Below, piece by piece: positions 7,921-60,274 of a DNA stretch of 64,000 nt. Both the position numbers and the translations under genes were made by a program. Positions within the stretch are counted from its first letter, which is position 1, and every line of letters begins with the position of its first letter. The notes below the pieces were generated by a model. The model did not search any database and was not told where the DNA came from. It saw only the letters and a list, made by a program, of their open reading frames with translations. The DNA is from Phenylobacterium sp. (GTDB lineage: Bacteria > Pseudomonadota > Alphaproteobacteria > Caulobacterales > Caulobacteraceae): assembly GCF_035276905.1 (NCBI RefSeq), contig NZ_DATELG010000107.1:290-64289 (forward strand), written 5' to 3'.

Positions 7921-7943
7921 GGGTTCCTCACTTCCAATCGACA

Positions 7944-8190
7944 TTAGATCAGCCTTCCGGCGAGGTGCGGCAACCGCCACGCCTCATCAAGCTTCGGCGA
8001 GCTCCGTCGCCAGACACCGGCGTCGCGGCCGTCGATAGCGGCCCGCCCCGTCGCGTATCCAGCGACCGCCTTGCCCGCAATTGGAAAGGCCCTGCGTCGC
8101 TGCAGAATTCACCATCGTGATTGTCGTCGTCAGAGGGCCTTGTCGGGCGGCGAGCGGATAGTCGGATGGTTCAATTCAAATTTAGATCAG
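7944..8190. promoter_or_regulatory. divergent promoter region with direct repeat TTAGATCAG (7944-7952 and 8182-8190) and ATTCAAAT box (8174-8181)
   Basis: Read directly in the 377-bp gap between the divergent MmgE/PrpD and acyl-CoA dehydrogenase genes. Confidence 0.35.
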
Positions 8191-10597: not shown

Positions 10598-10605
10598 GCC
10601 AGGAG

Positions 10606-13543: not shown

Positions 13544-13574
13544 GCTTAATCTCCTAAGAAAGTCGACTTAACGA

Positions 13575-13874
13575 CTACAGTTCCATGTCCAGAATGAAGG
13601 ACTGATAGGATTTGGCCTGCGTATCGACCATCAGGCTGGCCGAATAGGCGCCGCCAAGCGCCCCGTGCAGGACGAAGTTCAGTCCCTTGAGATTGGGGAA
13701 TTCATAGCGCTCGACCGGGCCTTTGACCGTGCGCGAGAAGAACTCCTTCACCCGCGAGGCCGTCAGCTTCTCGCGAAGAAGCTCCCAATCCTCGTCTTTA
13801 TAAGGGAAGACGCAGATGTTGGCCGTGTCGCCCTTGTCGCCCGAACGCGAGTAGGCGATTTCGCGAAGCCTCAT
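13575..13874 (-). CDS. small AtuA C-terminal-domain-like protein (partner of DUF1446 protein)
   Basis: 99 aa from ATG 13874, which forms an ATGA overlap with the upstream stop. The sequence MRLREIAYSRSGDKGDTANICVFPY... resembles the C-terminal module of full-length AtuA proteins. The longer ORF to 14045 is R-rich and overlaps the upstream gene. Confidence 0.6.
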   Translation of the reverse strand: MRLREIAYSRSGDKGDTANICVFPYKDEDWELLREKLTASRVKEFFSRTVKGPVERYEFPNLKGLNFVLHGALGGAYSASLMVDTQAKSYQSFILDMEL

Positions 13875-28137: not shown

Positions 28138-29112
28138 ATGTCCTCCGCCACGACAGACATGCTGCGGCTTCCCGCTCGGGAAATCCCCATCCCGACGTCG
28201 ATCAGCCCCGCCGCCCAGGCATATCTGACGCCGCGGCCCGCCCCGCAGGTCGACTATCCGCCCGCTCACGACCACGCCGCCTGGCGAGCGCTGATCGCGG
28301 CCCGCGAACAGGACCTTCTGCCCCTTCTGCAGCGCATCAACCCAGGCGTTCCGGCGAAGGTCGAGACGCGCGAGATCGATCGCGCCCGCGTCTTCGACAT
28401 CACCCCGGCAGGGGCGCCGGCGGACAGCCGCGGGATCGTCCTGGACATGCATGGCGGCGGTCTTTTCCTGTGCGCCGGCGACCTGTGCCGCATGATGGGG
28501 GTTGGCCTTGCGACGCGGCTGCAGCGGCGTGTCTGGGCGGTGGACTACCGCATGCCGCCCGACCATCCCTATCCGGCGGGGCTGGACGACGCCGTCGCGG
28601 TCTACCGCGCGCTGCTGCGCGAACACTCGCCGCAAGAGATCATCGCCAGCGGCGGATCGGCGGGGGGCAATCTCGCGGCCGCGCTGGTCCTGCGCACCCG
28701 CGACGAAGGCCTCCCTCTGCCGGCAGGCCTGCTGCTGAACACGCCTGAAATCGACCTCACCGAGTCTGGCGACAGCTTCCATACCAACCTGGGGGTCGAT
28801 CCCGGCCTGCGCAGCCTCATGCCCGTCAATCTCCTCTATGCGAACGGCCATGATCTAAGTCACCCCTACCTGTCGCCACTATTCGGGGATTTCCGCAAAG
28901 GGTTCCCGCCGACCCTGCTCACGACGGGCACGCGCGACCTTTATCTGTCGAACACGGTTCGCATGCACCGCGCGCTGCGCGCGGCCGACATACCGGCCGA
29001 ACTACATGTCGTCGAAGCCGGCGGCCACGGCGGCTTCCCCGGCGCCCCTGAGGGCGAGGAGATCAATCGCGAGGTGCGCCGCTTCATTCAAGCGCTCTGG
29101 GCCGACCTTTGA
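28138..29112 (+). CDS. alpha/beta hydrolase (hormone-sensitive-lipase-type esterase)
   Basis: 324 aa with the oxyanion motif HGGG (LDMHGGGLF) and the nucleophile elbow GGSAGGN. Confidence 0.85.
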   Translation: MSSATTDMLRLPAREIPIPTSISPAAQAYLTPRPAPQVDYPPAHDHAAWRALIAAREQDLLPLLQRINPGVPAKVETREIDRARVFDITPAGAPADSRGIVLDMHGGGLFLCAGDLCRMMGVGLATRLQRRVWAVDYRMPPDHPYPAGLDDAVAVYRALLREHSPQEIIASGGSAGGNLAAALVLRTRDEGLPLPAGLLLNTPEIDLTESGDSFHTNLGVDPGLRSLMPVNLLYANGHDLSHPYLSPLFGDFRKGFPPTLLTTGTRDLYLSNTVRMHRALRAADIPAELHVVEAGGHGGFPGAPEGEEINREVRRFIQALWADL

Positions 29113-30818: not shown

Positions 30819-32015
30819 TCAGTCCGGGACGAGCGGCGAGGCAGCCAGAGGGCTTGCGTGCTTTGCCGCGGCCAACCCCTGCTCCAAGGCCTGCGCCGTA
30901 CGGGTGGCGCGCGCCTTCTTCAGCTCCGGAAGCACCTTCGTTCCGAGCAGCTCGATCGAGCGCAACACCGCCGAATTCGGCAGGAAGCCGAAGTTCATGT
31001 AGCAGAGCAGCTGATCGACGCCGGCTTCCTCGTACCGGAGCAATTTCTGCACGCATTCCTCCGGCGTGCCGACGATCACCATGTCTTCCTTGTCGAACTC
31101 GGTGATGTCGAAGTCGCCCCTGGCCTGCCTTTGAAGCAGCGGAAAGGCCTTTTCCTGCTGCTCGGCTGAAAGATGAGCGAACTCCCACTTCAGATGAAAT
31201 TCGGCGAGGCCCTTGTACCACCACCACATCGAGTCCCAGAGACGGTTTTCCTCGAAGGTGTCCCGGGAATCGGTGCAATGCACCAAGGTATAGATGCCCA
31301 CCTTGTTGGTGTGCACGCTGGTCAGCGGCTTGGCCCGCTGCTGCGCCTGGCGGTAGTGGTCGATCAGCGTCTTGAGCTTGTCGAGCGGCTGCATGATGCT
31401 GAAGCAGAGCAGGCCGCAGCCGTTCTCCCCGGCCATCACCGCGCTGGACTCCGTGGACGCCGCCATCCAGGCGGGCGGATGCGGATCTTGCCACGGCTTC
31501 GGCGTCACCATCCGCTTCGGGAACTCGAGGAACTCGGAATGCTCCTCATAATACTGCTCCGCCCACATGCCGACGACAGTGCGCGCCGCGGCGCACATCT
31601 TGTCCTTGCTTCGGGCGATGTCGACGCCGAAGGCGGTCTGCTCCATCGGCGTCGAGCGACCCATGCCCCACACCGCGCGCCCGCCTGAGAGCACGTCGAC
31701 GGTGGCGACCTTCTCGGCGACTCGAGCCGGGTGGATGAATTCGTGGGGCATCAGCGTCACGCCGAAGCCCAGCTTGATCCTCTTGGTGATCTGGGAGAGC
31801 GCGCCCAGCACCACCTCGTTGCACGGCATATGCGACCTGTTTTCGCGGAAATGGTGCTCGACGCACCAGACGGTGTCGAATCCCACCGCGTCAGCGAGGA
31901 CGATTTGCTCGATGGATTCTTGGTAGGCCTTCCGCTCAGCCAGCCGCTGGCCCCAGGGGTGTTCGCCCTCCCAGGGCTGCGGCACATCGAATTCATAGAG
32001 TAAGCTAAGATCCAT
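30819..32015 (-). CDS. LLM-class (luciferase-like) flavin-dependent oxidoreductase
   Basis: 398 aa from ATG 32015, with pattern ...GFDTVWCVEHHFRENRSHMP...IKLGFGVTLMPHEFIHPARVAEKVATVDVLSGGRAVWGMGRS.... Confidence 0.85.
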   Translation of the reverse strand: MDLSLLYEFDVPQPWEGEHPWGQRLAERKAYQESIEQIVLADAVGFDTVWCVEHHFRENRSHMPCNEVVLGALSQITKRIKLGFGVTLMPHEFIHPARVAEKVATVDVLSGGRAVWGMGRSTPMEQTAFGVDIARSKDKMCAAARTVVGMWAEQYYEEHSEFLEFPKRMVTPKPWQDPHPPAWMAASTESSAVMAGENGCGLLCFSIMQPLDKLKTLIDHYRQAQQRAKPLTSVHTNKVGIYTLVHCTDSRDTFEENRLWDSMWWWYKGLAEFHLKWEFAHLSAEQQEKAFPLLQRQARGDFDITEFDKEDMVIVGTPEECVQKLLRYEEAGVDQLLCYMNFGFLPNSAVLRSIELLGTKVLPELKKARATRTAQALEQGLAAAKHASPLAASPLVPD

Positions 32016-32136
32016 GGCGCAGCCTTCTTTCAAGAGTGTCAGTTGCTCAATGGTAGAATTCAGCATTGCCTTTGAGCAAATTCGAATTGATATCTGGCGC
32101 GAAAAACTTATATACGGAGAGCAATACGCAATCGGC

Positions 32137-32185
32137 ATAGGCTGACAGCTGCGCCTGTCAGCGACGATTTCCTTGTATACGTATA
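32137..32185. promoter_or_regulatory. ATAGGCTGACA box + palindrome GCTGACAG-N6-CTGTCAGC + 10-bp palindrome TATACGTATA
   Basis: Read directly: 11-mer at 32137-32147 (an exact second copy is at 61449-61459), inverted repeat at 32141-32162, and TATACGTATA at 32176-32185. These lie 120-170 bp upstream of the LLM start. Confidence 0.45.
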
Positions 32186-32298
32186 GGCGGAGCCCGCGAC
32201 CGAAGCTGCGCACCCGGACTGGGTGCAGACCGCCCGTGCGCGAGCGACGGCTGCTTGCCGAACTTTCGGCGGCCGCGCTCGCGCTTCTGTGGCGGACG

Positions 32299-33255: not shown

Positions 33256-34194
33256 CTAGGGCCACCCGGCGCCCGGGACGTCGACCTCCATCATATAGAG
33301 GCCGGACGTGTCGACCTCGGCGGGATCGTCGGGCGAACGCTTGAGTCCGGTGTCGTGCCCAGGTCCCATGTAAAGGCTGCCGTGCGGCTTCGACGGATCG
33401 CTGCTGGGAAGCCGGCGGACGTCGGTGGCGACGATGAACAGCGTGCGCCGCCCCTCCCCGCCCAGCATGCAGGCGACCGCGCCGGGGATCGAGTACCTTT
33501 GCGCCACTTCGCCGCTGGACAGAACGCCGACGACCTCGCCCGAGTATGGCGAGCAGGCCCAAACGGCGCCTTCCGCGTCGAGGCAGATTCCATCCGGCCA
33601 GGTATGCTCGAACTCGACAAGCACGCGCTTGCCGCTGAGGCGGCCTTGCGGATCGCGGTCAAAGCGGACAATGCGCCTGGCGTAGATCTCGGCCATGATG
33701 AAGCTGCGCCCGTCGGGCGTGATCACCGCCCCGTTCGGCGAGCAGATTTGCTCCACGGGCGCCGCCGACTCGCCGTCCGGCTCGACGACGATCAGGGAAT
33801 CCGGCCCGCCGGGTTCGCGATAATGAACCGCCGGAGAGACCTTGGTGCTGCGCGTCCCGACATAGGCCCGCCCGTCTCCGTCCACGACCATGTCGTTCAG
33901 CCACTCGCCAGGCAGCCCCCGAAGGTCCGCGTGGAGCGAAAGCCGGCCGTCGCGCCACCGTAGCAGTTGGCGTTTGCGCATCGAGGCGATCAGGAGCCCG
34001 CCGTCAGGCATGAAGCCGAGTGCGGCCGGGGCGTCGTCGAGTTGCAGCACCACCTCGGACGGCTGGCCCAGCACCATCCGGTTCACCGTCTTCCTATAGT
34101 AGTCGGAAAACCAGAACGCGCCGCCATGCCATCGCGGACTTTCCGGACTGTTGAGGTCGAGGTGCGTTCTCGTCGGACCATCAGCTCTCGACAC
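33256..34194 (-). CDS. SMP-30/gluconolactonase/LRE family protein
   Basis: 312 aa with a GTG start. Patterns: PESPRWHGGAFWFSDY, WLNDMVVDGDGRAYVG and PDGICLDAEGAVW. Confidence 0.8.
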   Translation of the reverse strand: MSRADGPTRTHLDLNSPESPRWHGGAFWFSDYYRKTVNRMVLGQPSEVVLQLDDAPAALGFMPDGGLLIASMRKRQLLRWRDGRLSLHADLRGLPGEWLNDMVVDGDGRAYVGTRSTKVSPAVHYREPGGPDSLIVVEPDGESAAPVEQICSPNGAVITPDGRSFIMAEIYARRIVRFDRDPQGRLSGKRVLVEFEHTWPDGICLDAEGAVWACSPYSGEVVGVLSSGEVAQRYSIPGAVACMLGGEGRRTLFIVATDVRRLPSSDPSKPHGSLYMGPGHDTGLKRSPDDPAEVDTSGLYMMEVDVPGAGWP

Positions 34195-36599: not shown

Positions 36600-38324
36600 A
36601 TGCCAGGCCAGGATGAAACCTACGACTTTGTCATCGTCGGCAGCGGCGGCGGTTCGATGTGTGCTGCGCTGCTGATGAGGAGCATGGGCAAGACGGCGAT
36701 CATTCTTGAGAAGATGGAGGTCGTCGGCGGCTCCACGGCAATGTCGGGCGGAGTCCTGTGGCTGCCGAACAACGGTCTCAACCGTGCGGCCGGGGTCCCG
36801 GACTCGCCCGAGCTGTCGCTCAAATACCTCGAAAGCTTGACTACACCTGATCCCGGCCGCGGCGGGACGCCGCAGCGCCGCAAGGCGTTCGTCGATAACG
36901 CGCCGGTGATGTTGGATTTTCTACAACGGCAAGGCATCCAGCTCGAGCGGGCGGGCGGCTATTCCGACTACTACGACGACCAACCCGGCGGGCTTGCCGA
37001 AGGGCGCGCTGTGGTCGCGCGCATCTTCGACGTCAACAGGTTGGGGCGCGAGTGGGCCGGCAAGCTTCGGCTCACCGGACTGACGCTGCCGCTGACGATC
37101 AAGGAGGTTTGTCGAATTGTTCTGGTGAGACGGACCTGGGAGGCCCGGGCCGTGGCCGCCCGGCTTATGTGGCGGCTGCTCAAGGGCAAACTCACAGGTC
37201 AGCGCCTCGTCGGCACGGGCGCAGCGCTTCAGGGACGCATGCTGGAGGCCAGCGTGAAGGCCGGGGTGGAAATCCGCGTCAACTCGCCGGTGCGCAAGCT
37301 GATCGTGGAAGATGGCCGGGTATGCGGCGTCGTTGTCAGCCGCGACGGCAAGGATCAACGCGTCCTGGGCAAACTGGGCGTGCTCATCAATGCCGGAGGA
37401 TTCGCCCGCAACGAGCAGATGCGGTCGAAATACCAGCCCGGAAGTTCAAGCGCCTGGACCAACGCCAATCCCGGCGACACGGGCGAAATGATCGAGGAGG
37501 TGCTGCGGGTCGGCGGCAGCGTCGACCTGATGGACGAGAGCTGGTGGATCAGCGTCAGCGTCCCGCCGAATGCCGGCAGCATGTTGCCGATGCACCTGAT
37601 GGACATCGCCAAGCCTCACGCCTTCCTCGTCGACGCGGGCGCGCAGCGTTTCTGCGACGAAGCCGCCTCCTACATGGAGGTGGGCCAGCGGCAGCTGGCG
37701 CGCACGCGGCAGGGCGTGAACGCCACGCCCGCCTGGATGATCTTCGACAGCCAGCACCGGTCCAAATATATGGTGAGCGGCGCCCAGCCGGGGCGGACGC
37801 CTCGCGAGTGGGTGGAAGCCGGCTACCTGAAGGTCTCGGACACGCTCGCGGACCTGGCCCGCCAGTGCGGGCTCGACCCCGACGCGCTGGCCGCGACCAC
37901 GGAACGGTTCAACCGCTTCGCCGATCGCGGCGTCGATGAGGATTTCCATCGCGGGCGGCGGCGGTACGACAGCTGGTTCGGCGATCCCACGCACAGGCCC
38001 TCGGCGACCCTCGGGGCCGTCCGCAAGGGGCCCTTCTACGCCCTGCAGGTCTATCCCGGCGACGTCGGCACCGCGGGAGGCGTGGTCACCGACGAGCATG
38101 GCCGAGCGCTCACGGCGGACGGCAAGGTCATTCCGGGTCTTTACGTCACCGGCAACTCCGCAGCGCCCGTGACCGGCCACTATTACGTCGGGCCGGGCAC
38201 CAGCATCGGCGCCTCCTTCACCTTCGGCTTCCTGGCCGCAAAGCACGCGACCGCCGGCTCCAGGACCGCGGTGGCGCACGACGAGGATCAACGTCCTTAC
38301 CGTGCCGGCATGTCAACACATTGA
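36600..38324 (+). CDS. FAD-dependent dehydrogenase of the 3-ketosteroid dehydrogenase (KstD)/fumarate-reductase-flavoprotein-like family
   Basis: 574 aa with an AGGAAGGAGAG RBS. Patterns: YDFVIVGSGGGSMCAAL...LEKMEVVGGSTAMSGGVLW and the C-terminal GDVGTAGGVVTDEHGRAL...IPGLYVTGNSAAP. Confidence 0.85.
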   Translation: MPGQDETYDFVIVGSGGGSMCAALLMRSMGKTAIILEKMEVVGGSTAMSGGVLWLPNNGLNRAAGVPDSPELSLKYLESLTTPDPGRGGTPQRRKAFVDNAPVMLDFLQRQGIQLERAGGYSDYYDDQPGGLAEGRAVVARIFDVNRLGREWAGKLRLTGLTLPLTIKEVCRIVLVRRTWEARAVAARLMWRLLKGKLTGQRLVGTGAALQGRMLEASVKAGVEIRVNSPVRKLIVEDGRVCGVVVSRDGKDQRVLGKLGVLINAGGFARNEQMRSKYQPGSSSAWTNANPGDTGEMIEEVLRVGGSVDLMDESWWISVSVPPNAGSMLPMHLMDIAKPHAFLVDAGAQRFCDEAASYMEVGQRQLARTRQGVNATPAWMIFDSQHRSKYMVSGAQPGRTPREWVEAGYLKVSDTLADLARQCGLDPDALAATTERFNRFADRGVDEDFHRGRRRYDSWFGDPTHRPSATLGAVRKGPFYALQVYPGDVGTAGGVVTDEHGRALTADGKVIPGLYVTGNSAAPVTGHYYVGPGTSIGASFTFGFLAAKHATAGSRTAVAHDEDQRPYRAGMSTH

Positions 38325-38340
38325 GATCGAGCGACTGACG

Positions 38341-38787
38341 ATGACTGTCGAAGACCTTTTGGCGCGAGAAGAAATTCGCCGCACCCTGGCCGGCTACAAC
38401 CTGGCCGGAGACCGACTTCGCGTCGACGAGGTGGTCAACTGTTTCACCGCCGACGGAGTCCTGGAAATCCCAGGGGCCCGCTTTTCCGGACGGGAGCGGA
38501 TCCGAGAATTCATGAGCGGGAGGGGACCGTCCACGGAGGGCGCTGCACGGCCGCGCCCGACCTTCGTCAGGCACCACATCACCACCTGCGGCATCGAGCT
38601 CACGGGGCCGGACACGGCGACGGCGCGGACCTATTACGCGGTCTATACCGATGTCGGCCCGGATCACTGCGGCTATTATGTGGACGCCTTCCGCAAGGAA
38701 GACGGTCGCTGGCTGATCGCGGAGCGCAAGGCGCGGCTCGATTGGCGATCGCCCTCCAGCTTGATGGTCGCCGCCCCAAGCGCGTGA
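38341..38787 (+). CDS. NTF2/SnoaL-like fold protein
   Basis: 148 aa, starting 16 nt after the KstD-like stop. Pattern: LLAREEIRRTLAGYNLAGDRLRVDEVVNCFTADGVLE...YVDAFRKEDGRWLIAERK. Confidence 0.7.
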   Translation: MTVEDLLAREEIRRTLAGYNLAGDRLRVDEVVNCFTADGVLEIPGARFSGRERIREFMSGRGPSTEGAARPRPTFVRHHITTCGIELTGPDTATARTYYAVYTDVGPDHCGYYVDAFRKEDGRWLIAERKARLDWRSPSSLMVAAPSA

Positions 38788-38812: not shown

Positions 38813-39706
38813 TCAGGCTTCTCCCGCCTGCTTCTTGTTCGCCGCCGCCATGGCCTTGGAGTCCAGGTTGCCGATCGAGCTTCCCAGGACCAGGTCGTTC
38901 TGGGCGTGGGCGAAGTGATGCATGTGGTAGACCGCATCCATCGTCGCGCGCTTGCCGCGAAGGTCCTCGGCGTGGCTGATCGCCTGCTTGGTGAGCCAGA
39001 GGCCCAGCGCCGGCCGCTCCGCCAGCTGGTTTGCGATCTTGGCGCATTCGTCGCGCAGGCGTTCACGCGGCGCGACCCGGTTGACCATGCCGAAGTGATG
39101 CGCGCGCTCCGCGCTCATCCGTTCTCCGAGCATCAGGAATTCGGCCGCCACACGCGGGGGCAACTCGAAGGCGTGCGCCCAGTATTCGACGCCCGGAATG
39201 CCCATCAGCAGGACCGGATCCTGGAAGAAGGCGTCCTCCGAGGCGACGATCAGGTCGCACACCCAAGCCAGCATCAACCCGCCGGCGACGCACGCCCCCT
39301 GGACCATGGCGATCGTCGGCTTGGCGATCTGTCGCCAGCGCCGGCAGAGGCCGAGGTAGACTTCCTGCTCGCGCGTGTAGAGGAACTCCGCCGCGGGCTT
39401 GTCCGCATGGTCGGGGAACAGATGGACCCGCGGGCGGCTGACCCCCACGTCGCGTCCGGGGGTGCCGATGTCATGGCCGGCGGAAAAGTGCTTTCCCTCG
39501 CCGCCGAGCACGATCGCCTTCACCGCAGGATCATCGACTGCGCGCCGGAACGCCGCATCCAGGGCGTAGAGCAGCTGCCCGTTCTGCGCGTTGTGGAACC
39601 TGGGGCGGTTCAACATGATCCAGGCGGTGGATCCTTCGACGCCATAGGACACCGGCTCTTCGGTCTCGTACGTCGGGTTGGCCGCCCTTGCGAAATCGTC
39701 CGTCAT
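38813..39706 (-). CDS. enoyl-CoA hydratase/isomerase (crotonase) family protein
   Basis: 297 aa from ATG 39706, with pattern WIMLNRPRFHNAQN...VLGGEGKHFSAGHDIG. Confidence 0.85.
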   Translation of the reverse strand: MTDDFARAANPTYETEEPVSYGVEGSTAWIMLNRPRFHNAQNGQLLYALDAAFRRAVDDPAVKAIVLGGEGKHFSAGHDIGTPGRDVGVSRPRVHLFPDHADKPAAEFLYTREQEVYLGLCRRWRQIAKPTIAMVQGACVAGGLMLAWVCDLIVASEDAFFQDPVLLMGIPGVEYWAHAFELPPRVAAEFLMLGERMSAERAHHFGMVNRVAPRERLRDECAKIANQLAERPALGLWLTKQAISHAEDLRGKRATMDAVYHMHHFAHAQNDLVLGSSIGNLDSKAMAAANKKQAGEA

Positions 39707-39875
39707 GCTGCCCTCTCTCGGCCCTGGCCCGCTCACGCGATTGCGCCTGACGTTCGCCGGCCGGACTCATCCGGCTTTTCCATCGCAGAAACGCCTCCGA
39801 TCGACAGTTCTCGCCACGATCGGGCCGGCGATTTCACAATCATGATAGGCCCGCCGCCTGGCTCGGCCCAGGCGG

Positions 39876-40106
39876 CTATTCGATCGCGCCAATCTCGGCG
39901 CCCACGGGGTAGACGGCGCCAGCCGCCGCCCTGTGGATCAGCCGACCGGCGACGGGAGCGGCAATGTCCTGCGCCGCCTTTCCGGTCTCCAGGACATAGA
40001 TCGGATCGCCCTCGGCGACCTGCGCGCCGTCCGCGGCCAGCCATTCGGCCAGGCCGCCCTCGGACATCGCCATCTCCAGCTGCGGGATCGTCAGAATGGT
40101 GCTCAT
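39876..40106 (-). CDS. free-standing lipoyl/biotinyl-attachment domain protein
   Basis: 76 aa from ATG 40106, preceded by AGGAG. The whole protein aligns by eye to a single lipoyl domain (LTIPQLEMAMSEGGLAEWLAADGAQVAEGDPIYVLETGKAAQDIAAPVAGRL...). The modification-site context is TGKA rather than TDKA. Confidence 0.75.
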   Translation of the reverse strand: MSTILTIPQLEMAMSEGGLAEWLAADGAQVAEGDPIYVLETGKAAQDIAAPVAGRLIHRAAAGAVYPVGAEIGAIE

Positions 40107-40122
40107 CGAGACTCCTGGGCTC

Positions 40123-42168
40123 TTATTTGAACGCCACCAGCTCACGCGCGCGGGCGGCGATGGCCGGGGCGTACGGGATCTGGTTGAACTCAATCTCGGG
40201 GGAATAGGCGATCGGAGCGTATTCCGCGCCGAGCCGGTCGGCCGGCGCCTTGAGCGTGCTGAACAGCTCCGCATTCAGAGTTGCGGCGATCTCCGAGCCC
40301 AGACCGCAGAACTCGGTCGCGGCGTGCACGACCAGGGCCCTTCGGGTCTTGCGCACGGAGTCCAGCACGCGGTGATAGTCGAGCGGCAGCAGCGTGCGCA
40401 GGTCGATGACCTCGGCGCTGACGCCCTCCTTGGCGAGGTCCTCGGCGGCCGACATGCACTGATGCACCTCCCAGCCGTAGGAGATCAGGGTGATGTCCGT
40501 CCCCGTGCGGAGCACCTTGGCGACCCCGAGCGGGATCCGGTAATCGCCCGCCGGCAACTCCCCGCGGAAACTGCGCAACAGCGTCATCGATTCCAGGTGC
40601 ACGCAGGGGTCCTCGTCAAAGATGCAGCTGAGCAGCAGCCCCTTGGCGTCGAGCGGATTGCTCGGATAGGCGACCTTCAGGCCCGGCGTGTGCAGCAGCC
40701 ACGCTTCCAGCGACTGTGAATGCTGGGCGCCGAAGCCGCCGAGCCCGCCGCCGGTCATGATCCGCATGGTCATCGGCACATGGGTCGCCGCGCCCGACAT
40801 GTAGCGCTGCTTGGCCGCATGGTTGACGATCTGGTCGAGGCACACGGCGGTGAAGTCGCTGAACATGATCTCGGCGATCGGCCTGAGGCCCGCGAGCGCC
40901 GCCCCGGTGCCGGCGCCGATGATCGACTGCTCGGCGATGGGCGTCGGCCGCACCCGCTGGGGGCCGAACGTCGTCTGCAGGCCTGCGGAGGTCTTGAAGA
41001 CCCCGCCCGGCGGATCGCCGATGTCCTCGCCCAGAAGGAGGACGCCTGGATCGGCCTCCATGGCGATCCGCTGCGCCTCGACGATCGCCTCGTTCATCAG
41101 CACCGTGCGCCGCTCGCCCGCCGGCTCGGGCTCGGCGGCGCGAATGGGGTAGCGGCCGCGGCGGGGAATGACGTCGGGATCGCCGTAGACGTCGACGAGC
41201 ATCTCCGCGACGGGCGTGACGGGGCTGGCCAGCGCAGCCGCCACGGCGGAGTCCACCTCGACCTGGACCTCGCGGTCGATCCGCTCCAGCTCGTCTTCCG
41301 TGCAGACCCCCGCCTCGAGCAGCCGGGCTCGCGTCCGCGGAGCAGGCGCGGCGGCCTTGCCCGCCTTCAGCTCTTCGCGGGTCAGCTCGGGGCTGTCGCC
41401 GACGCCGGCGTGACGGCCGAGGCGCAAGGTGACCGCCTCGACGAACACCGGGCCCTCGCCGCGCCGCACCGCCTCGACGATCGGCTTCATGGCGTTGAAG
41501 AAACCGATCGGGTCGTTCCCGTCGAGCTTCACGCCTCGGAAGCCATAGCCCGCCGCACGAGAGGCGAAGTCCGGGCTCGCCGTATAGTCCGGAATCTTAG
41601 TATACTCGGCGATCTGGTTGTTCTGGCACAGGAAAATCACCGGCAGCTTCCACACGCCGGCCAGGTTCATCGCCTCGTGCACCGCGCCGATGGAGGTCGC
41701 CCCGTCGCCGAAGTTGACCACGGTGACGCGGTCCTCGCCGCGAAGCTGAGCGGCCATCGCCAGCCCGTTGGCGATCGGCGCGCCGGCGCCGACGATCGCC
41801 GTGGTCAGCATCGAGCCGGAGGCCGGGTCGGAGATGTGCGGCGCCCCGCCCTTGCCCTTGTTCACTCCGCCGATCCGGCTCAGCGCCTCGGCGAACAGCC
41901 GGTCGAGCGGCACGCCCTTGGCCACCTGATCGTGGATCCCCCGATAGGTGGTGACCATGTAATCGCGCGCCGTCAGCAATTGCGACAACACCGCCGGGAT
42001 CGCCTCCTGACCGGTCATCGGCCAGTAGTTGAACCGCAGTTGGCCGCTGGAAAGGCCGGCCTGTATCGCCTTGTCCACGGCGCGCACCCGCGCCATCTGC
42101 CGGTAGATCGCCTGCAGCACCGCCGGCTCGATCCCCAGATTGCCGCTCACCTTCTCGCCGACGCTCAT
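40123..42168 (-). CDS. fused E1 alpha-beta subunit of a TPP-dependent 2-oxoacid/acetoin dehydrogenase-type enzyme
   Basis: 681 aa from ATG 42168, preceded by GGAGG. The N-terminal half has the TPP motif GDGATSIGAVHEAMNLAGVWKLPVIFLCQNNQ. The C-terminal half has the E1-beta pattern LLLGEDIGDPPGGVFKTSAGLQTTFGPQRVRPTPIAEQSIIGAGTGAAL. Confidence 0.85.
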   Translation of the reverse strand: MSVGEKVSGNLGIEPAVLQAIYRQMARVRAVDKAIQAGLSSGQLRFNYWPMTGQEAIPAVLSQLLTARDYMVTTYRGIHDQVAKGVPLDRLFAEALSRIGGVNKGKGGAPHISDPASGSMLTTAIVGAGAPIANGLAMAAQLRGEDRVTVVNFGDGATSIGAVHEAMNLAGVWKLPVIFLCQNNQIAEYTKIPDYTASPDFASRAAGYGFRGVKLDGNDPIGFFNAMKPIVEAVRRGEGPVFVEAVTLRLGRHAGVGDSPELTREELKAGKAAAPAPRTRARLLEAGVCTEDELERIDREVQVEVDSAVAAALASPVTPVAEMLVDVYGDPDVIPRRGRYPIRAAEPEPAGERRTVLMNEAIVEAQRIAMEADPGVLLLGEDIGDPPGGVFKTSAGLQTTFGPQRVRPTPIAEQSIIGAGTGAALAGLRPIAEIMFSDFTAVCLDQIVNHAAKQRYMSGAATHVPMTMRIMTGGGLGGFGAQHSQSLEAWLLHTPGLKVAYPSNPLDAKGLLLSCIFDEDPCVHLESMTLLRSFRGELPAGDYRIPLGVAKVLRTGTDITLISYGWEVHQCMSAAEDLAKEGVSAEVIDLRTLLPLDYHRVLDSVRKTRRALVVHAATEFCGLGSEIAATLNAELFSTLKAPADRLGAEYAPIAYSPEIEFNQIPYAPAIAARARELVAFK

Positions 42169-42448
42169 CGCCGCCTCCATCGCCGCCCAGGGGCGCCGCA
42201 AGCCCCGCAGCGCCTCACGCCAACCATCGTCAGCGCCGGGCTCGTCGCAGGTCGCCGTGCTTCGAGACGGGCGCTCGTGAGCGGCGAGGACTTTACGAAC
42301 ACTGTGCGCTTCGCCGTCGATACGGCGCGATGAACCTCACTGGCTTTGACCGGCTGCGGCGCCGACGTCCAGCATCCGGCGAGATTCATCAGCTATATGA
42401 AAACTGGTCAGGCGCGAGGCGACCTCGCAGCGCGTGGGCGCGCTTGAC

Positions 42449-43264
42449 CTATTTTCCGCGGAAGGTCGGCTTGCGTTTTTCGACGTGGGCGCGGGTGGCC
42501 TCGGTGAAATCCTCGGTCTTGAAGGTGTAGGCCTCGTAGGCGATGGAGGTCTCGAAGGCGGCGCCGGTCATCTGCTTCAGGGCGACGTTCAAGGACGCCT
42601 TGGTGTAGTTCAGCGCGTGCGGTGGCTGAGCAAGCAGCCGCTGGACGACCCCGTCCACATAGCCGTCGAGCTCCTCGTCCGGGATCACGCGGTTGATCAG
42701 GCCGATCTCGGCCGCATCCTCGGCGCTGATCGGGTCGCCCAGCATCAGGGCCTCCTTGGCGCGCCGCAGCGCCCCCAACGCCGGCCACAGCAACACGCCG
42801 CCGTCGCCCGCGACCAGCCCGACCCGCACGTGGGAATCGCGGAACTTGGCCCCCGGGGCCGCATAGACGAGGTCGCAGGCGAGCGCGAGCGTGACGCCCA
42901 CGCCATAGGCCGCGCCGCGCACCTTCGCGATCGTGGGTTTCTCACAATCGAGGATGGCGTAGGCATGCTTCTTGGCCAGCCGTGTCATGGGGAACACGGG
43001 ATTGGCGACGTCGAACCGCCCGCCCAACCTGCTGGCGTCGGCGCCGGCGCAGAAGTCGGCGCCGTCCCCCTGGAGGACGATCACGCGGACCTCCGGATCG
43101 AGCCACACGTCCTCCCAGATCCGCGTCAGCTCTGCGCTCATGGTCGGGTTCGTGGCGTTGCGGCGGCCGGGATTGGATAGGGTGATGGTCATCACGCCAT
43201 CCTTCTTGTCGAGGCGCAGCGCCTCGTAGCGGCTGTAGTCGTAGGCGCTTTGGCTCGTGCTCAA
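42449..43264 (-). CDS. enoyl-CoA hydratase/isomerase (crotonase) family protein
   Basis: About 271 aa, with pattern GVMTITLSNPGRRNA...VLQGDGADFCAGADAS. I chose the TTG start at 43264, preceded by GGAAGGAAG. The longer ORF to 43357 is S/R-rich. Confidence 0.8.
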   Translation of the reverse strand: MSTSQSAYDYSRYEALRLDKKDGVMTITLSNPGRRNATNPTMSAELTRIWEDVWLDPEVRVIVLQGDGADFCAGADASRLGGRFDVANPVFPMTRLAKKHAYAILDCEKPTIAKVRGAAYGVGVTLALACDLVYAAPGAKFRDSHVRVGLVAGDGGVLLWPALGALRRAKEALMLGDPISAEDAAEIGLINRVIPDEELDGYVDGVVQRLLAQPPHALNYTKASLNVALKQMTGAAFETSIAYEAYTFKTEDFTEATRAHVEKRKPTFRGK

Positions 43265-43373
43265 CGTGAAGCTTCCTTCCCCAGCTGCTCGCCTCGACGA
43301 AGACCCGGTCGTGACCGCGGAGCTCCTTGACCCTCGCCGCAGCTGCGCCAGGGACAATCTCCATTTGCCTTGA

Positions 43374-44373: not shown

Positions 44374-45432
44374 CTAAAGGCCCGCCACGGCGGTGGCGAC
44401 GCTCTTGATCCTCCAGGTCTGCGAGAGCCGGGCGCCGAGCCAGTGGGCGAGCGCGGCGTTGACCTCGACCGGCTTCTCCTGCTGCACCCAGTGACCGGCC
44501 TCGACGACATGCTCCTCAAGATCGGGGCAGTATTCACGCATGGGGCGGGCTAGATCCGAGCTGATCGTCGCGCACGACATGTCGTAGACCGCATGGATAA
44601 AGCAGACCGGCATCTCAAGTCTTCCGCCCCTCACCGCGCGCCCGGCGTACTCTGCGTTCAGGTCCTGGTTATGGTAGTACTTGTTGGCGCCGGCAAAGCC
44701 GTGACGCTTGAAGTTGGAAACGAAAGCCCAATAGGCGGCCTCGTCGAGAACGGCCTCGTCGCGCTCGAAACCGCGGGTGGCGTCCAGCAGCGGCTGCCAG
44801 CCGGCGGGCGCCTTGATCAGTCCGGCGGGGGAGGCTGCGCCGAAGTGCGCCGCGTCCCCCCGGCGGAAGATGAGCCGGACGGAATGCTCGACGTCCGCAT
44901 CGAGGGCGGCGGTGACGGTCTCGTGGGCCTCCAGGTGATAGTTCCAATAGGCCCACTGCCCCTGCGGGAACCGGTCCTGCGGATAGATCTCGCGGTTCAC
45001 CAGCGGCACGACGCTGGCGAGCGTGAACCCGCCGGGGAGATAGGGAACGCACAGGTTCGCAACCGCGATGCAGGCTTCCGGGTGATGGCTCGCCAGGGCC
45101 CAGACCACGGCGGCGCCCACGTCGTGACCGACCCAGACCGCCTGATCGCGGCCAAGAGCCTTCAACAGCTCGAGCATGTCGCGGACGCACTCCTCCATGG
45201 AATAGTCCTCGAACCGGTCGTAGGCGCTCGACCGTCCGTAGCCACGCATGTCCGGCGCGATCACCCGGTAGCCGAGGGCGGCGAAGACAGGCAACTGATG
45301 GCGCCAGCTTATCGCCAGCTCCGGCCAGCCGTGCACGAAGATCAACGGCACCCCGTCGGCCGGACCGGCCTCGAGATAGGACGTCATGTGGCGCGCGGTG
45401 GCCACGACCCGCTCGGTGACCTGAAGCGTCAT
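44374..45432 (-). CDS. alpha/beta hydrolase (epoxide hydrolase/haloalkane-dehalogenase-like)
   Basis: 352 aa, with the HGWPE motif (LIFVHGWPELAISWRHQ), the nucleophile region WVGHDVGAAV, and a cap-domain insertion. Confidence 0.85.
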   Translation of the reverse strand: MTLQVTERVVATARHMTSYLEAGPADGVPLIFVHGWPELAISWRHQLPVFAALGYRVIAPDMRGYGRSSAYDRFEDYSMEECVRDMLELLKALGRDQAVWVGHDVGAAVVWALASHHPEACIAVANLCVPYLPGGFTLASVVPLVNREIYPQDRFPQGQWAYWNYHLEAHETVTAALDADVEHSVRLIFRRGDAAHFGAASPAGLIKAPAGWQPLLDATRGFERDEAVLDEAAYWAFVSNFKRHGFAGANKYYHNQDLNAEYAGRAVRGGRLEMPVCFIHAVYDMSCATISSDLARPMREYCPDLEEHVVEAGHWVQQEKPVEVNAALAHWLGARLSQTWRIKSVATAVAGL

Positions 45433-45609: not shown

Positions 45610-46779
45610 ATGCCCTCAGTCGTGATCGTCAGCGCCGCCCGGACGGCGATCGGCGCCGCCCGCAAGGGCTCTTTGGCCCGCACGCCCGCCGAACGCCTCG
45701 CGGCGACGGCCGTCAAGGCGGCGGTGGAGCGCTCCGGCTTCGCGCCGGAGGAGATCGATGACGTCGTACTGGCCGAGTCGCTCTACGGCGGCGGCGCCGT
45801 CGCCCGCCACGCCGCCGTAGAGCTCGGCATGACGCGGGCCGCCGGCATGGCGGTCAACCGGCACTGCGCCGGCAGCCTGAGCGCGATGGGCGTCGCGGCG
45901 GGATCCATCCTGGCGGGGATGGAGCGGGTGATGGTGACGGGCGGCGTCAACTCCAGCTCGCTCTCGCCCCAGATGATGCAGCCCGACCCTGCGACCGGCG
46001 AATTGCAGCGCTGGTGGCCGCCGACGCATCCGGATTCGCCGGAGGCGCCAAATCTGGACATGTCGATCACCGTCGGCTGGAACACGGCCAAGGAGCTCGG
46101 CCTGACGCGCGAGGAGCTCGACCGTTGGGCGTTGCGCTCGCACCAGCGCGCGGTGACCGCCATCGACGAGGGCCGTTTCATCGAGGAGATCGCCCCGATC
46201 ACCGTGCGCGACGCCGAGGGCGCCGAGTTCGAATTCAAGGTGGACGAGCATCCCCGCCGCGGGACCACGCTGGAGAAACTCGCCAGCCTCGCGGTCCTGC
46301 ACCCGGAGATCGAAGGCTTCTCCATTACCGCGGGCAACGCCAGCGGCGGCAACGACGCGGCCGCGGCGATGGTCGTCACCGAAGCGGACATCGCCAGGCG
46401 CCGCAACGCTCCGGTGCTCGCCAAGGTCCTGGGCTGGACCGCCATCGGCGCAGATCCGGCGAGAACAGGGCTCGCCGTCGCCCCGGTCGTGGAAAAGCTG
46501 CTCTCCCGGACGGGCCGGCGGATCGAGGAGGTGCGGCTCTGGGAGATCAACGAGGCGTTCGCCTCGGTCCCGCTCGGCGCCTGCCGGATCCTGGGATTGT
46601 CCGAGGACACGGTGAACATCTCCGGCAGCGGCTGCTCCCTCGGGCACCCGGTGGGCGCCAGCGGCGCCCGCATGCTGATCACCCTGGCGCACGACCTTCG
46701 CCGGCGCGGCGGCGGCCTAGGGGTCGCGGCGATGTGCGCCGGCGGCGGCCAGGCCGGCGCCGTCCTGATCGAGGTCTGA
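45610..46779 (+). CDS. thiolase (acetyl-CoA C-acyltransferase family)
   Basis: 389 aa from ATG 45610. Patterns: VIVSAARTAIGAARKGSLA, catalytic Cys region NRHCAGSLSA, and the C-terminal GCSLGHPVGASGARM and AMCAGGGQAGAVLIEV. Confidence 0.9.
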   Translation: MPSVVIVSAARTAIGAARKGSLARTPAERLAATAVKAAVERSGFAPEEIDDVVLAESLYGGGAVARHAAVELGMTRAAGMAVNRHCAGSLSAMGVAAGSILAGMERVMVTGGVNSSSLSPQMMQPDPATGELQRWWPPTHPDSPEAPNLDMSITVGWNTAKELGLTREELDRWALRSHQRAVTAIDEGRFIEEIAPITVRDAEGAEFEFKVDEHPRRGTTLEKLASLAVLHPEIEGFSITAGNASGGNDAAAAMVVTEADIARRRNAPVLAKVLGWTAIGADPARTGLAVAPVVEKLLSRTGRRIEEVRLWEINEAFASVPLGACRILGLSEDTVNISGSGCSLGHPVGASGARMLITLAHDLRRRGGGLGVAAMCAGGGQAGAVLIEV

Positions 46780-46952
46780 GCCGCATCCGGCGCCAGGCGA
46801 GCGCACGAGCGCTCGTCTGCACAATTCACGTTCATGATAACGGCGCGCCGCCTGCCTGCGACGACGAAGACTGCCGTATGGTCGGGCGGATTGTACTTCG
46901 CATGCGCCGCAGGCCTTCGCATTCCGGCGACGTCGATCCCAAGGAGCCGAGC

Positions 46953-47342
46953 GTGGCGCTCACACTCGAGGACCGTGTCCTGCTGCAGGACCTGATGGGC
47001 CGCTACTGCCTGATGGTGGACGCCGCCGATGAAGGCTGGGCCGACCTCTTCGTCGAGGACGGCGTTCTCGATGGGATCTATCCCGAGCCGCTGATCGGCC
47101 GCGAAGCCCTGCGCGTCGTGCCTCGGAACGCAAGAGAAGGGAGCGGCGGATTTTGGCGCCATCACCTGACCAGCGTCGCCATCGACGAAGCCGCCGGCGG
47201 CGCACGCCTTCGCGCCTACAACCTCGTCACGGACTGGCGTGACGGCGGCAAGCTGGTGATGAACGCGCGCTACAACGTTGAGGCGGTCCGGACCCCTGAA
47301 GGCTGGCGGCTCAAACGGGTCTACGCCGCGTTGGACCGATAG
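46953..47342 (+). CDS. NTF2/SnoaL-like fold protein
   Basis: About 129 aa. The GTG start at 46953 is preceded by AAGGAG at a 6-nt spacing. Pattern: LEDRVLLQDLMGRYCLMVDAADEGWADLFVEDGVLD...RTPEGWRLKR. Upstream in-frame ATGs at 46878 and 46902 are alternatives. Confidence 0.65.
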   Translation: MALTLEDRVLLQDLMGRYCLMVDAADEGWADLFVEDGVLDGIYPEPLIGREALRVVPRNAREGSGGFWRHHLTSVAIDEAAGGARLRAYNLVTDWRDGGKLVMNARYNVEAVRTPEGWRLKRVYAALDR

Positions 47343-47395
47343 AACGCGGCAATTCGCGTTCAAATCCACAGCGTCCACGAAGCGAGGGATATTCA
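47342..47395. promoter_or_regulatory. inverted repeat GAACGCG-N6-CGCGTTC (47342-47361) overlapping TTCAAATC (47359-47366), plus GATATTCA (47388-47395)
   Basis: Read directly in the 58-bp gap upstream of the SDR gene. It contains both halves of the 13-mer box, separated by 21 nt. Confidence 0.4.
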
Positions 47396-47400
47396 GGTCG

Positions 47401-48189
47401 ATGAAGCGATACGAAGGCAAGGTCGCCGTCGTCACGGCCTCGGCCGCCGGGATCGGCCGCGCCATAGTCGAGCGGCTCGTCGCGGAAGGGGCGCACGTCC
47501 TGGCGACCAGCCGCAACGGCGCGGACGAACTGGCCGCGAAGCTGGGCGAGCGCTGCGTTTCGATGAGGGTCGACATCGGCCAGGAAGACCAGATCATCGC
47601 GATGGTCGAGGCCGCCAAGGCGCGGTTCGGCCGGATCGACGTCGCGTTCAACGTCGCCAATGGCGCGCGCCTGGGCACGATCCTCGGCAGCTCGGCTGCG
47701 GAGTGGCGGGTCGCCTTCGACGTCTCGGTGATCGGCACCTTCAACTGCGTGCGCCACGAAGCCCGGCAGATGATCGAGGCGGGGATTCGCGGGGCGATCG
47801 TCAATGTCGCCTCGCTGAACGCCGATGTGCCCGCCCGCGGCCTGAGCTCATACTCGGCGGCCAAGGCCGCGATCGTCATGCTCGGCAAGGCCTGCAGCAT
47901 CGAGTTCGCCCAGTATGGCGTGCGGGTGAACACCCTGTCTCCCGGGCTGACCGGCACGGCCGTCAACAAGGACATCCCGGAGGCGATGCTCGCCGCCTTT
48001 ATGGAACGGATCCCGGTCGGGCGCATGGCGAGCCCCGAGGAGCAGGCCGAAGCCGCCTTGTTCCTGGGCAGCGAACAGGCCTCCTACATCTGCGGCGAGA
48101 ACCTCGTCGTCGACGGCGGCTGGGCCAACAGCGGCTATCCCGACACCCGTCTATGGTTCGGCGGGCTGCTCGACGACAAGCTCGGCTAG
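47401..48189 (+). CDS. short-chain dehydrogenase/reductase (SDR)
   Basis: 262 aa from ATG 47401, with VAVVTASAAGIGRA and YSAAKAA (YxxxK). Confidence 0.85.
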   Translation: MKRYEGKVAVVTASAAGIGRAIVERLVAEGAHVLATSRNGADELAAKLGERCVSMRVDIGQEDQIIAMVEAAKARFGRIDVAFNVANGARLGTILGSSAAEWRVAFDVSVIGTFNCVRHEARQMIEAGIRGAIVNVASLNADVPARGLSSYSAAKAAIVMLGKACSIEFAQYGVRVNTLSPGLTGTAVNKDIPEAMLAAFMERIPVGRMASPEEQAEAALFLGSEQASYICGENLVVDGGWANSGYPDTRLWFGGLLDDKLG

Positions 48190-53734: not shown

Positions 53735-54781
53735 TCAGGCCCTCAGACGCCGTTTGAAGAAGCGGACGATGGCTTGATAGGCTTCGCTGGGCTCCGGCGC
53801 GGAGGCGTCGTAGTAGAAGCAATGGCCCAGACCGTCGAAGACGTGCAGGGACGAGTCCGCGCCCGCGCGGATCAGGGCCCGGTGGGCCGCAATGGCCGGG
53901 CTCATATCGAAGGCGCGGGTGGCGGTGAGGATCATGCTGGGCGGGAACTTCGCCAGCAGCGCCGGATCGCCGAGCGTCGGATCAACGAACGGGTCGTCGG
54001 CGCGCGCGGTCGAGAAATAGCCGAGCTTGGTGTTGAGCACGCCTGGGATCGGGGCCACGGGCGGAGCCGTGGCGGCGCCGATCGCGGCGAAGTAGTCGCT
54101 GTCGCCGTGGGAGAAGCCGCCCGCGCCGAACACCCCGATCGCGGCGGGCGCCGGCAAGCCGTCGGCGACGATCCTGTAGGCGGCCTGGAGCGACAGAATC
54201 CCGCCGGCCGACCCGCCATAGATCACGATGTTCTCCGGCGCGTGGTGCTGCAGCAGCTCTCGATAGACGGCGACGACATCGTCGGTGGCGGCCGGATATT
54301 TGTGCTCGTAACCCTGGCGGTAGTCGATCGAGACCACCTTCATTCCGGTCAGATGCGCCATCGGGATCGCTTCGATGCGTGAGACATAGCCGTAGCCCGA
54401 ACAGAACCCGCCGCCGTGCAGGTTCAGGAGGATCCGATCGGGATCGCAATTGGCCGGGATGAACGCCTCGCCTCGGACGCCGGCAAGGACGACGTCTCGC
54501 ATCTCGACGGGGAACTCGGCCAGCAGCTTCTCCGACAGCGGCCGGGCGAACATCTCGTCCAGGCCCGCGCGGAAGGCGTCGACCGCAGCCCTGTAGGCGT
54601 CGGGGACGTCGATCTTGTCGATGGCCGAGATGTCGATCGGCAGCGCCGCGGCAAGCGCCTGGGCCTGAGCCCGGGCGGTCGATGCGCTGAGGGCGGCGGA
54701 GATGGGCAGGCTGAAGGATGGAACCTGGATGGTTCCGTCGCTCTCGACCCTGGCTGCGGCTTTGGCGTCGTCAGTAGCCAT
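53735..54781 (-). CDS. alpha/beta hydrolase (HSL-type esterase/lipase)
   Basis: 348 aa with the HGGGF oxyanion motif (LNLHGGGFCSG) and YGGSAGG (GxSxG). Confidence 0.85.
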   Translation of the reverse strand: MATDDAKAAARVESDGTIQVPSFSLPISAALSASTARAQAQALAAALPIDISAIDKIDVPDAYRAAVDAFRAGLDEMFARPLSEKLLAEFPVEMRDVVLAGVRGEAFIPANCDPDRILLNLHGGGFCSGYGYVSRIEAIPMAHLTGMKVVSIDYRQGYEHKYPAATDDVVAVYRELLQHHAPENIVIYGGSAGGILSLQAAYRIVADGLPAPAAIGVFGAGGFSHGDSDYFAAIGAATAPPVAPIPGVLNTKLGYFSTARADDPFVDPTLGDPALLAKFPPSMILTATRAFDMSPAIAAHRALIRAGADSSLHVFDGLGHCFYYDASAPEPSEAYQAIVRFFKRRLRA

Positions 54782-60174: not shown

Positions 60175-60274
60175 CACTCCTCCTCCCAGCGCCGCCCTTC
60201 TGGACCCACCGGCCAAGCGTGCGCTCGGGGCGAGTCTTCACAACGCCCCGCGCAAGTCCAGCCAATTTTAGTTT

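Follow-up and report, generated by a model that had tools for sequence, protein, structure and literature searches.

A fused E1 dehydrogenase and a free-standing lipoyl carrier as a predicted two-gene module in catabolic clusters of Phenylobacterium and other bacteria

A gene for a fused alpha-beta E1, the thiamine diphosphate (TPP)-dependent component of lipoyl-dependent dehydrogenases, is followed directly by a gene for a 76-amino-acid (aa) protein made up of a lipoyl domain alone in a 64,000-nt stretch of Phenylobacterium sp. DNA (contig NZ_DATELG010000107.1, positions 290 to 64,289; hereafter the window). We propose that the two genes probably constitute a self-contained module of E1 plus lipoyl carrier, belonging to a disaggregated lipoyl-dependent dehydrogenase whose E2 catalytic (acyltransferase) domain and E3 (dihydrolipoamide dehydrogenase) would act in trans. 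In textbook 2-oxoacid and acetoin dehydrogenases, an E2 core bears the lipoyl arms and binds both E1 and E3. Here, a widespread and horizontally mobile family dispenses with the E2 scaffold, as its lipoyl arm is a free protein of 76 residues, its E2 catalytic domain is separate or absent from the locus, and E3 is not co-encoded. The chemistry and all of the folds are known, and what is unusual is the organization, namely a free carrier, a detached or missing E2, the absence of a subunit-binding domain, and a fused E1. Current annotation of the two proteins is generic ("2-oxoisovalerate/pyruvate/acetoin dehydrogenase E1" and "lipoyl domain-containing protein"), and full-text literature searches returned no account of an E1 whose lipoyl carrier is a free protein of the E2 type, nor of a split E2, consistent with the view of the first-pass annotation of this DNA that the module is uncharacterized.

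Results

The pair lies within a row of four minus-strand genes encoding a crotonase, the 681-aa E1, the 76-aa protein, and a second crotonase (Table 1). E1 and carrier are tightly coupled, with the E1 stop codon (TAA) at 40125-40123, the carrier ATG at 40106, and an AGGAG sequence that ends 5 nt ahead of this ATG, whereas the crotonases are set 140-280 nt apart from them, the upstream one 245-280 nt from the E1 start (alternative upstream E1 starts are found at 42180, ATG, and 42201, TTG) and the downstream one 140-170 nt past the carrier stop. We compared 18 distinct loci with an E1 identity of at least 67%, and a 75-78-aa lipoyl open reading frame (ORF) directly follows E1 in 15 of them, always after a gap of 6-24 nt, which bears out the expectation of a conserved mini-lipoyl ORF beside homologous E1 genes. 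The pair occurs in Steroidobacteraceae, Sphingobium, Phenylobacterium, Acidocella, Bradyrhizobium, Porticoccaceae, Luminiphilus, Halieaceae, Pseudomonadales, and a Verrucomicrobiaceae metagenome-assembled genome, and therefore across Alphaproteobacteria, Gammaproteobacteria, and Verrucomicrobia.

Around the pair, genes vary from genome to genome and their order is otherwise not conserved. Short-chain dehydrogenases/reductases (SDRs) recur as neighbors in 11-13 loci, GbcA-like Rieske oxygenases in 7-8, crotonases in 6-8, and aldehyde dehydrogenases in 6; the GbcA-like Rieske neighbor is also present in Azospirillum, Streptomyces, Rhodococcus, and Comamonadaceae loci. Both same-strand flanking genes of the window are crotonases (PF00378), as described earlier, but the bracket they form is not a conserved feature: among the clade loci compared, the upstream crotonase has an orthologue in L006 only (69% identity), and the downstream one in L006 (82%) and L012 (85%) only. 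The crotonases were thus ruled out as conserved partners and appear to be local context rather than part of the module. Since only general neighbor themes recur and the crotonases are local, the pair behaves as a portable two-gene module, and the comparison points to a real, conserved unit placed in varied degradation clusters for hydrophobic substrates.

The fused E1 scans as a full E1, with PF00676 (E = 1.5e-61), PF02779 (1.3e-31), and PF02780 (1.2e-33) all far over their Pfam cutoffs, which upholds the initial description of one 681-aa chain with the alpha TPP motif and the beta domains. Its alpha part covers residues ~1-335 and is joined by a Pro/Arg-rich linker (~335-355) to the beta part (356-681), which contains the pyrimidine-binding and C-terminal domains. 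The TPP/Mg motif consists of GDG at residue 154 and NN at 183-184; the alpha part also has Tyr-Arg and GKGGxPH elements and a histidine, His253, that aligns with human E1alpha His263, while the beta part has the cofactor-activating Glu413 in PIAEQ and His483 in QHSQ. Every one of these motifs (GDG, NN, Tyr-Arg, GKGGxPH, His253, Glu413, and His483) is conserved in 18/18 clade members. The enzyme looks catalytically complete and is presumably a homodimer equivalent to alpha2beta2. We take the counterparts of His253 and His483 in the G. stearothermophilus and human E1s to serve the reductive acylation of lipoamide, and the retention of both histidines argues that this E1 still passes its product to a lipoyl arm.

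The E1 ORF has a G+C content at third codon positions (GC3) of 0.91, and more than 100 homologues were found at 72-86% identity. Upon clustering at 50%, the clade is reduced to one representative (60% identity), and the next representatives are at most 48% identical. The NCBIfam equivalogs for pyruvate dehydrogenase (PDH) E1 alpha and beta all score under cutoff (287.8 vs 321, 267 vs 454, and 226 vs 394), and among solved structures the nearest are PDH E1beta of G. stearothermophilus (267 bits) and the human PDH E1alpha (143 bits).

For the carrier, PF00364 is the sole Pfam family over its cutoff (34.8 bits vs 22.1), in agreement with the earlier reading of the ORF 16 nt downstream of E1 as a lipoyl domain alone. 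Its score against the glycine cleavage H-protein family GCV_H (PF01597) is 19.5 bits, under the cutoff of 22.2, and its length is 76 aa compared with ~125 aa for H protein. The top NCBIfam match is NF011457, the N-terminus of the AcoC-type acetoin dehydrogenase E2 (54.9 bits, next match 32.6), and the alignment covers positions 4-77 of 372, that is, the lipoyl end alone. An AlphaFold2 model (mean pLDDT 90.7) shows the flattened beta-barrel of a lipoyl domain and places Lys43 at the tip of a hairpin between strands 35-41 and 44-49, and Foldseek matched the model to the E2 lipoyl domains of PDH and 2-oxoglutarate dehydrogenase (OGDH) with TM scores of 0.90-0.92.

We found 76 carrier homologues, nearly all of them 76 aa long, and Lys43, the predicted lipoylation site, is invariant in 30/30 and 21/21 aligned sequences. 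The lysine lies in a LET[GDSEA]KA motif with no flanking methionines, which does not match the (A/V)MKM motif of biotin carriers. The string VLETGKAAQD was correctly read from the window, but GKA as a special motif was ruled out: the residue preceding Lys43 can be G, D, S, E, or A in the family, so GKA instead of DKA is no distinguishing feature. Across 16 loci, pN (median 0.22) is lower than pS (0.63), and the resulting dN/dS of ~0.18 indicates that the carrier ORF is under purifying selection.

No E2 catalytic domain or E3 is encoded in the 64-kb window, as had been stated. We ran phmmer on every window ORF of at least 40 aa, using as queries five full-length E2s, three stand-alone E2 catalytic domains, and two E3s, and only the 76-aa ORF was matched, by virtue of its lipoyl part. 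RHA1 LpdA, used as an additional E3 query, matched no window ORF, and Pfam annotation of the ~50 predicted window genes contained no PF00198 and no E3. The 140 nt following the carrier hold no E2 fragment. Neither the window nor the clade loci, examined out to 10 kb, yielded an E3 or a lipoate ligase. At the Verrucomicrobiaceae locus L014, a 426-aa flavoprotein (12740-14020) located ~450 nt after the carrier has weak dihydrolipoamide dehydrogenase similarity (40.6 bits) and is probably a ferredoxin reductase. An alpha/beta hydrolase of the window (44374-45432) was considered as a detached AcoC-type E2 body and rejected, as its match to NF011457 (positions 111-226) reflects the generic hydrolase fold; its top matches are haloalkane dehalogenase models far under cutoff, and the gene is unique to the window among the loci compared.

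A sister family has a split E1. By tblastn against plasmids, we found split E1alpha and E1beta pairs, 46-50% identical to the fused E1 and followed by a 76-aa "lipoyl domain-containing protein," in Azospirillum sp. B510, Paraburkholderia sp. PGU19, P. sprentiae, Diaphorobacter sp. HDW4B, Sphingobium sp. RAC03, and Streptomyces sp. NBC_00564 (the E1 of L057 is likewise split into alpha and beta). Their carriers are 45-51% identical to that of the window. In Paraburkholderia, Diaphorobacter, a second Azospirillum locus, and a Comamonadaceae contig, a ~250-aa protein with PF00198 only comes directly after the carrier, and this stand-alone E2 catalytic domain has a DHRxxNG motif and no subunit-binding domain. 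Its position after the carrier identifies the architecture as a disaggregated E2. The stand-alone domain has many homologues, among them proteins of Thauera linaloolentis, Ferribacterium, and Pseudomonas umsongensis, and the four-gene sets of Paraburkholderia and Diaphorobacter adjoin a DUF1302/DUF1329/YCF48/MMPL transporter set.

We also scanned metagenomes using the split-family carrier as an anchor, which yielded 42 loci whose downstream sequence extends for at least 1.5 kb. An E2 catalytic domain follows the carrier in 26/42 and is missing in 16/42, and it is present in 10/17 loci that extend at least 5 kb to each side; E1beta adjoins the carrier in 47/50 metagenome loci. No consistent substitute gene was found downstream of the carrier in the loci without the domain. 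The genes in that position encode cytochrome P450, acyl-CoA dehydrogenase, SDR, glucose-methanol-choline (GMC) oxidoreductase, and AMP-binding proteins; an AMP-binding gene comes directly after the carrier in the Azospirillum locus lacking the domain and a patatin-like hydrolase gene does so in Streptomyces, and the same is seen in five metagenome loci.

Plasmid pAB510b of Azospirillum sp. B510 has two loci ~82 kb apart (L086 and L091), one with the order Rieske oxygenase, E1alpha, E1beta, and carrier without an E2 catalytic domain, and the other with a carrier and E2 catalytic domain pair, no E1, and flanking insertion sequences. This is a natural case in which the E2 catalytic domain could act in trans. 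On the megaplasmid of the tomato-associated Sphingobium sp. TomTYG73 and in 10 sister strains (L087 and L096), the E1 is split and the carrier lies 17 kb away, and the region that contains both has many genes for acyl-CoA dehydrogenases and SDRs, an alkene reductase gene, and KstD-like genes; the Sphingobium tomatine paper makes no mention of the split E1 and carrier genes.

A neighbor-joining tree of fused or concatenated E1 sequences (200 bootstraps) recovered the fused clade in 200/200 replicates and the fused clade together with the split carrier-associated E1s in 199/200. This joint clade is apart from the Aco-type E1 (Caballeronia acoABC), from the other fused E1 alpha-beta proteins, and from the E1 of RHA1 pRHL3, which is accompanied by LpdA and a full E2. 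Fused E1 genes at a greater distance (35-50% identity) precede a gene for a full E2 (400-470 aa) and often one for an E3 as well. From its placement, the fusion in this clade is independent of that in the common fused E1s resembling branched-chain 2-oxoacid dehydrogenase (BCKDH), and the small lipoyl protein is a family trait derived from a disaggregated E2.

Judging from its genes, the whole window is one large catabolic island. Transport and regulation are represented by a TonB receptor, a major facilitator superfamily transporter, and IclR and TetR regulators; oxidative genes comprise two luciferase-like monooxygenases, one monooxygenase of the flavin-containing (FMO) type, two Rieske oxygenases, GMC oxidoreductases, and SDRs. 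The island also encodes SnoaL_4, PrpD-like, and AtuA-like proteins, lactonases, esterases, a D-2-hydroxyacid dehydrogenase, a class II aldolase, and three aldehyde dehydrogenases, and its CoA genes are two CoA-transferase III enzymes, an acyl-CoA synthetase, and a thiolase. The KstD-like and SnoaL_4 genes suggest cyclic-ketone or steroid-like substrates for the island, and the monooxygenase, lactonase, and esterase genes look like a toolkit for Baeyer-Villiger oxidation followed by lactone and ester hydrolysis. The PrpD-like/Rieske pair lies ~35 kb from E1 in the window and adjoins the fused E1 in the Steroidobacteraceae loci L006 and L007. NCBIfam scans of the recurrent Rieske, PrpD-like, and KstD-like neighbors returned no specific function. 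Long ORFs antisense to real genes, at 45783-48026 (-, 747 aa), 38906-40207 (+, 433 aa), and 40720-42333 (+, 537 aa), are artefacts of the 67% G+C, with GC3 favoring the opposite strand.

Table 1. Features of the E1-carrier locus, of the surrounding island, and of the split sister loci
Feature	Position	Strand	Size, family, or basis
Upstream crotonase-family gene	42449-43357	-	302 aa; PF00378, E 2.1e-51
Fused E1 alpha-beta (TPP-dependent dehydrogenase component)	40123-42168	-	681 aa; PF00676, PF02779, PF02780
E1-carrier spacer, 16 nt, with Shine-Dalgarno AGGAG at 40116-40112	40107-40122	-	sequence inspection
Free-standing lipoyl carrier protein, lipoyl domain only	39876-40106	-	76 aa; PF00364
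Lys43 codon AAG, predicted lipoylation site	39978-39980	-	alignment and model
Downstream crotonase-family gene, PRK08290 subfamily	38813-39736	-	307 aa; PF00378; NF006140 394 bits vs cutoff 280
KstD-like FAD_binding_2 flavoproteins	36600-38324; 58495-60216	+; -	second: 774 bits vs 789-bit cutoff of the 3-ketosteroid delta-1-dehydrogenase model
SnoaL_4 genes accompanying the KstD-like genes	38302-38787; 1757-2245		
Two luciferase-like monooxygenases, FMO/Baeyer-Villiger monooxygenase (BVMO)-type flavoprotein, SGL lactonases, Abhydrolase_3 esterases	3252-4664; 30819-32213; 10243-12255; 18414-19352; 33256-34194; 28138-29112; 53735-54781		
PrpD/MmgE-like gene and GbcA-like Rieske oxygenase	6538-7980 and 5038-6528	-	adjacent pair
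Split E1alpha/E1beta/76-aa lipoyl protein/~250-aa E2 catalytic domain loci	L089 6991-10001; L090 6992-9985; L097 7783-10801; listed alongside: L091 9001-10042		

Discussion

We propose that the E1, with TPP, would decarboxylate a 2-oxoacid, or cleave an alpha-hydroxyketone or 1,2-diketone, to give a hydroxyalkyl-TPP intermediate, and would then reductively acylate the lipoyl group on Lys43 of its own freely diffusing 76-aa carrier. An E2-type catalytic domain encoded outside the locus, either of the stand-alone ~250-aa type or from a housekeeping E2, would unload the acyl group to CoA, and the general dihydrolipoamide dehydrogenase of the cell would re-oxidize the dihydrolipoyl carrier; a housekeeping E3 is expected in the host genome. 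Acylation of the carrier is proposed because the catalytic residues are intact and the two genes are tightly coupled. The two later steps are suggested by the split-E2 relatives and by what is known of E2 catalytic domains and E3, both of which tolerate free lipoyl domains and accept free lipoamide. Lipoyl domains in isolation serve their cognate E1 well as substrates, and corynebacterial OdhA works in trans with the lipoyl domains of another complex (AceF).

Several observations weigh against this proposal. Three close loci (L007, L010, and L017) have the E1 without a carrier; L017 is the one Novosphingobium locus retrieved, and homologues of both proteins are listed for Novosphingobium. None of the 18 fused-clade loci has a stand-alone E2 catalytic domain beside the carrier or up to 10 kb away, and the 64 kb has none at all; the partner in trans is therefore one that we purely infer. 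The 16/42 sister loci without the domain could mean that it is dispensable, and a housekeeping E2 would need to accept a possibly bulky acyl group. The first-pass annotation had rightly seen a minimal TPP and lipoyl-carrier module in a catabolic island, but it had assigned acyl transfer to a non-E2 partner, and this is not the simplest reading, as the sister family has an E2 catalytic domain in ~60% of its loci. We consider an E2 catalytic domain in trans, dedicated and encoded elsewhere or housekeeping, at least as likely as a non-E2 partner.

A non-E2 partner is nevertheless the alternative that survives best, although we think it unlikely. A non-E2 enzyme would discharge the acyl-dihydrolipoyl carrier, either a serine hydrolase, with later re-activation of the acid by an acyl-CoA synthetase or CoA-transferase, or some other acyltransferase. 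This possibility is kept alive because the E2 catalytic domain is absent from 18/18 fused-clade loci and from ~40% of sister loci. AMP-binding ligases, CoA-transferase III enzymes, and hydrolases recur beside modules without the domain, two CoA-transferase III genes occur in the window itself together with several hydrolase genes and one for an acyl-CoA synthetase, and the AcoC-type acetoin "E2" (NF011457), a lipoyl domain joined to an alpha/beta-hydrolase fold, is a precedent. However, no candidate is conserved beside the pair, since the hydrolase at 44374-45432 is confined to the window and is of a generic haloalkane-dehalogenase/epoxide-hydrolase type; AMP-binding genes are not confined to loci lacking the E2 catalytic domain; and hydrolysis followed by ATP-dependent re-activation would waste the energy of the thioester. 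In a bolder and still less probable form of this idea, the pair would be a complete, E2-independent C-C cleaving module that opens alpha-hydroxyketones or 1,2-diketones. Alicyclic, terpenoid, or steroid rings or side chains, oxidized by the neighboring Rieske, P450, SDR, and KstD-like enzymes, would be split into an aldehyde and an acyl-lipoyl carrier, from which a non-E2 enzyme would take the acyl group onward. If true, this would be an unrecognized use of protein-bound lipoate in catabolism.

It is also conceivable, though quite improbable, that the fused E1 docks on the E2 core of a housekeeping PDH or BCKDH and uses its lipoyl domains, with the 76-aa protein as an accessory such as an adaptor or a lipoyl relay or donor. 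The three loci with E1 and no carrier would fit this arrangement, and in one of them, L007 of Steroidobacteraceae, an ordinary operon of E1alpha, E1beta, and full E2 lies 6 kb upstream on the other strand (spans 2406-5000 and 9704-12049). Bacillus GcvH is a known example of a small lipoyl protein that acts as a lipoyl relay. Against it, the carrier is translationally coupled to E1 in all 15 paired loci and is under purifying selection, it stays with E1 throughout the family whether the E1 is split or fused, and neither the carrier nor the split E2 catalytic domain has a subunit-binding domain, which argues against assembly into a core.

Very little speaks for a lipoate-free E1, a TPP decarboxylase or carboligase like the sugar-branching E1-type enzymes of natural-product pathways, with an unrelated small ORF next to it. 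E1-type TPP enzymes that work independently of E2 have been reviewed (PMC12247030), but the histidines for lipoamide acylation are conserved here, the carrier is nearly always co-encoded, and the context is catabolic rather than biosynthetic, so that we regard this reading as highly improbable. That the 76-aa ORF is the decaying remnant of a full-length E2, as the full E2 after distant fused E1 genes might suggest, is already contradicted by the conservation data (a length of 75-78 aa kept in 15 loci, the low dN/dS, the invariant Lys43, and no E2 fragment downstream), and same-clade loci do not routinely carry a full-length E2, so this can practically be dismissed.

As for what a disaggregated dehydrogenase of this kind would act on, a hydrophobic 2-oxoacid and an acyloin or diketone fit the contexts equally well. 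A 2-oxoacid, arising in the alpha-oxidation of hindered acids, would be in keeping with the hydroxylase, 2-hydroxyacid dehydrogenase, and GMC oxidase genes present, and an acyloin or diketone with the oxygenases and SDRs and with the AcoC lipoyl end as the top family match of the carrier. The module seems to travel as a two-gene unit among catabolic islands for hydrophobic, alicyclic, terpenoid, or steroid-like compounds. If the proposed mechanism is true, a soluble system of carrier proteins, much like that of acyl carrier proteins, can carry out lipoyl-dependent oxidative C-C cleavage, and the pair would mark an unassigned step in the bacterial degradation of hydrophobic, alicyclic, or steroid-like compounds.

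Comparison with known systems

The window pair shares with the heterotetrameric PDH and BCKDH systems the three E1 domains, the TPP motif, the catalytic Glu and His residues, and the lipoyl fold. It differs from them in that alpha and beta are fused and the lipoyl domain is a separate 76-aa protein, in that an E2 with lipoyl, subunit-binding, and core domains is not encoded with the E1, and in that all NCBIfam PDH models fall under cutoff. As the locus has no subunit-binding domain, E2 core, or E3, a scaffolded megacomplex is unlikely.

Acetoin dehydrogenase (AcoA/AcoB/AcoC/AcoL, or Ao:DCPIP oxidoreductase) has an E1 of the same superfamily that places the acyl group on lipoate after cleaving the C-C bond of an acyloin; in a review of E1-type TPP enzymes, lipoate-independent carboligases and this system in Bacillus are the only ones treated (PMC12247030). 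The likeness to the window lies in the AcoC lipoyl end as the best family match of the carrier and in the SDR and aldehyde dehydrogenase genes that recur near the pair. In contrast, Caballeronia AcoAB is just 39% identical to the window E1 and falls outside the 199/200 clade, and an AcoC body, AcoL, acoX, or a sigma-54 regulator (AcoR) was not found among the annotated window genes.

The split-E2 systems of Paraburkholderia sp. PGU19, Diaphorobacter sp. HDW4B, Azospirillum sp. B510, and Comamonadaceae, all generically annotated, have an E1 of the sister lineage (44-49% identity) and the same type of 76-aa carrier, and they share kinds of context with the window (Rieske oxygenase, SDR, crotonase, and acyl-CoA enzymes); the window differs in its fused E1 and in the absence of the E2 catalytic domain from the locus. 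Free or trans-acting lipoyl proteins are known from the glycine cleavage H protein, from LbpA of the sulfur-oxidizing sHdr systems, and from OdhA with the AceF lipoyl domains, and the window pair resembles these in having a lipoyl-lysine arm outside the enzyme's own scaffold that would shuttle between catalytic partners. It differs in that the window carrier is of the E2 type rather than the H type and is paired with an E1 of the PDH/BCKDH class.

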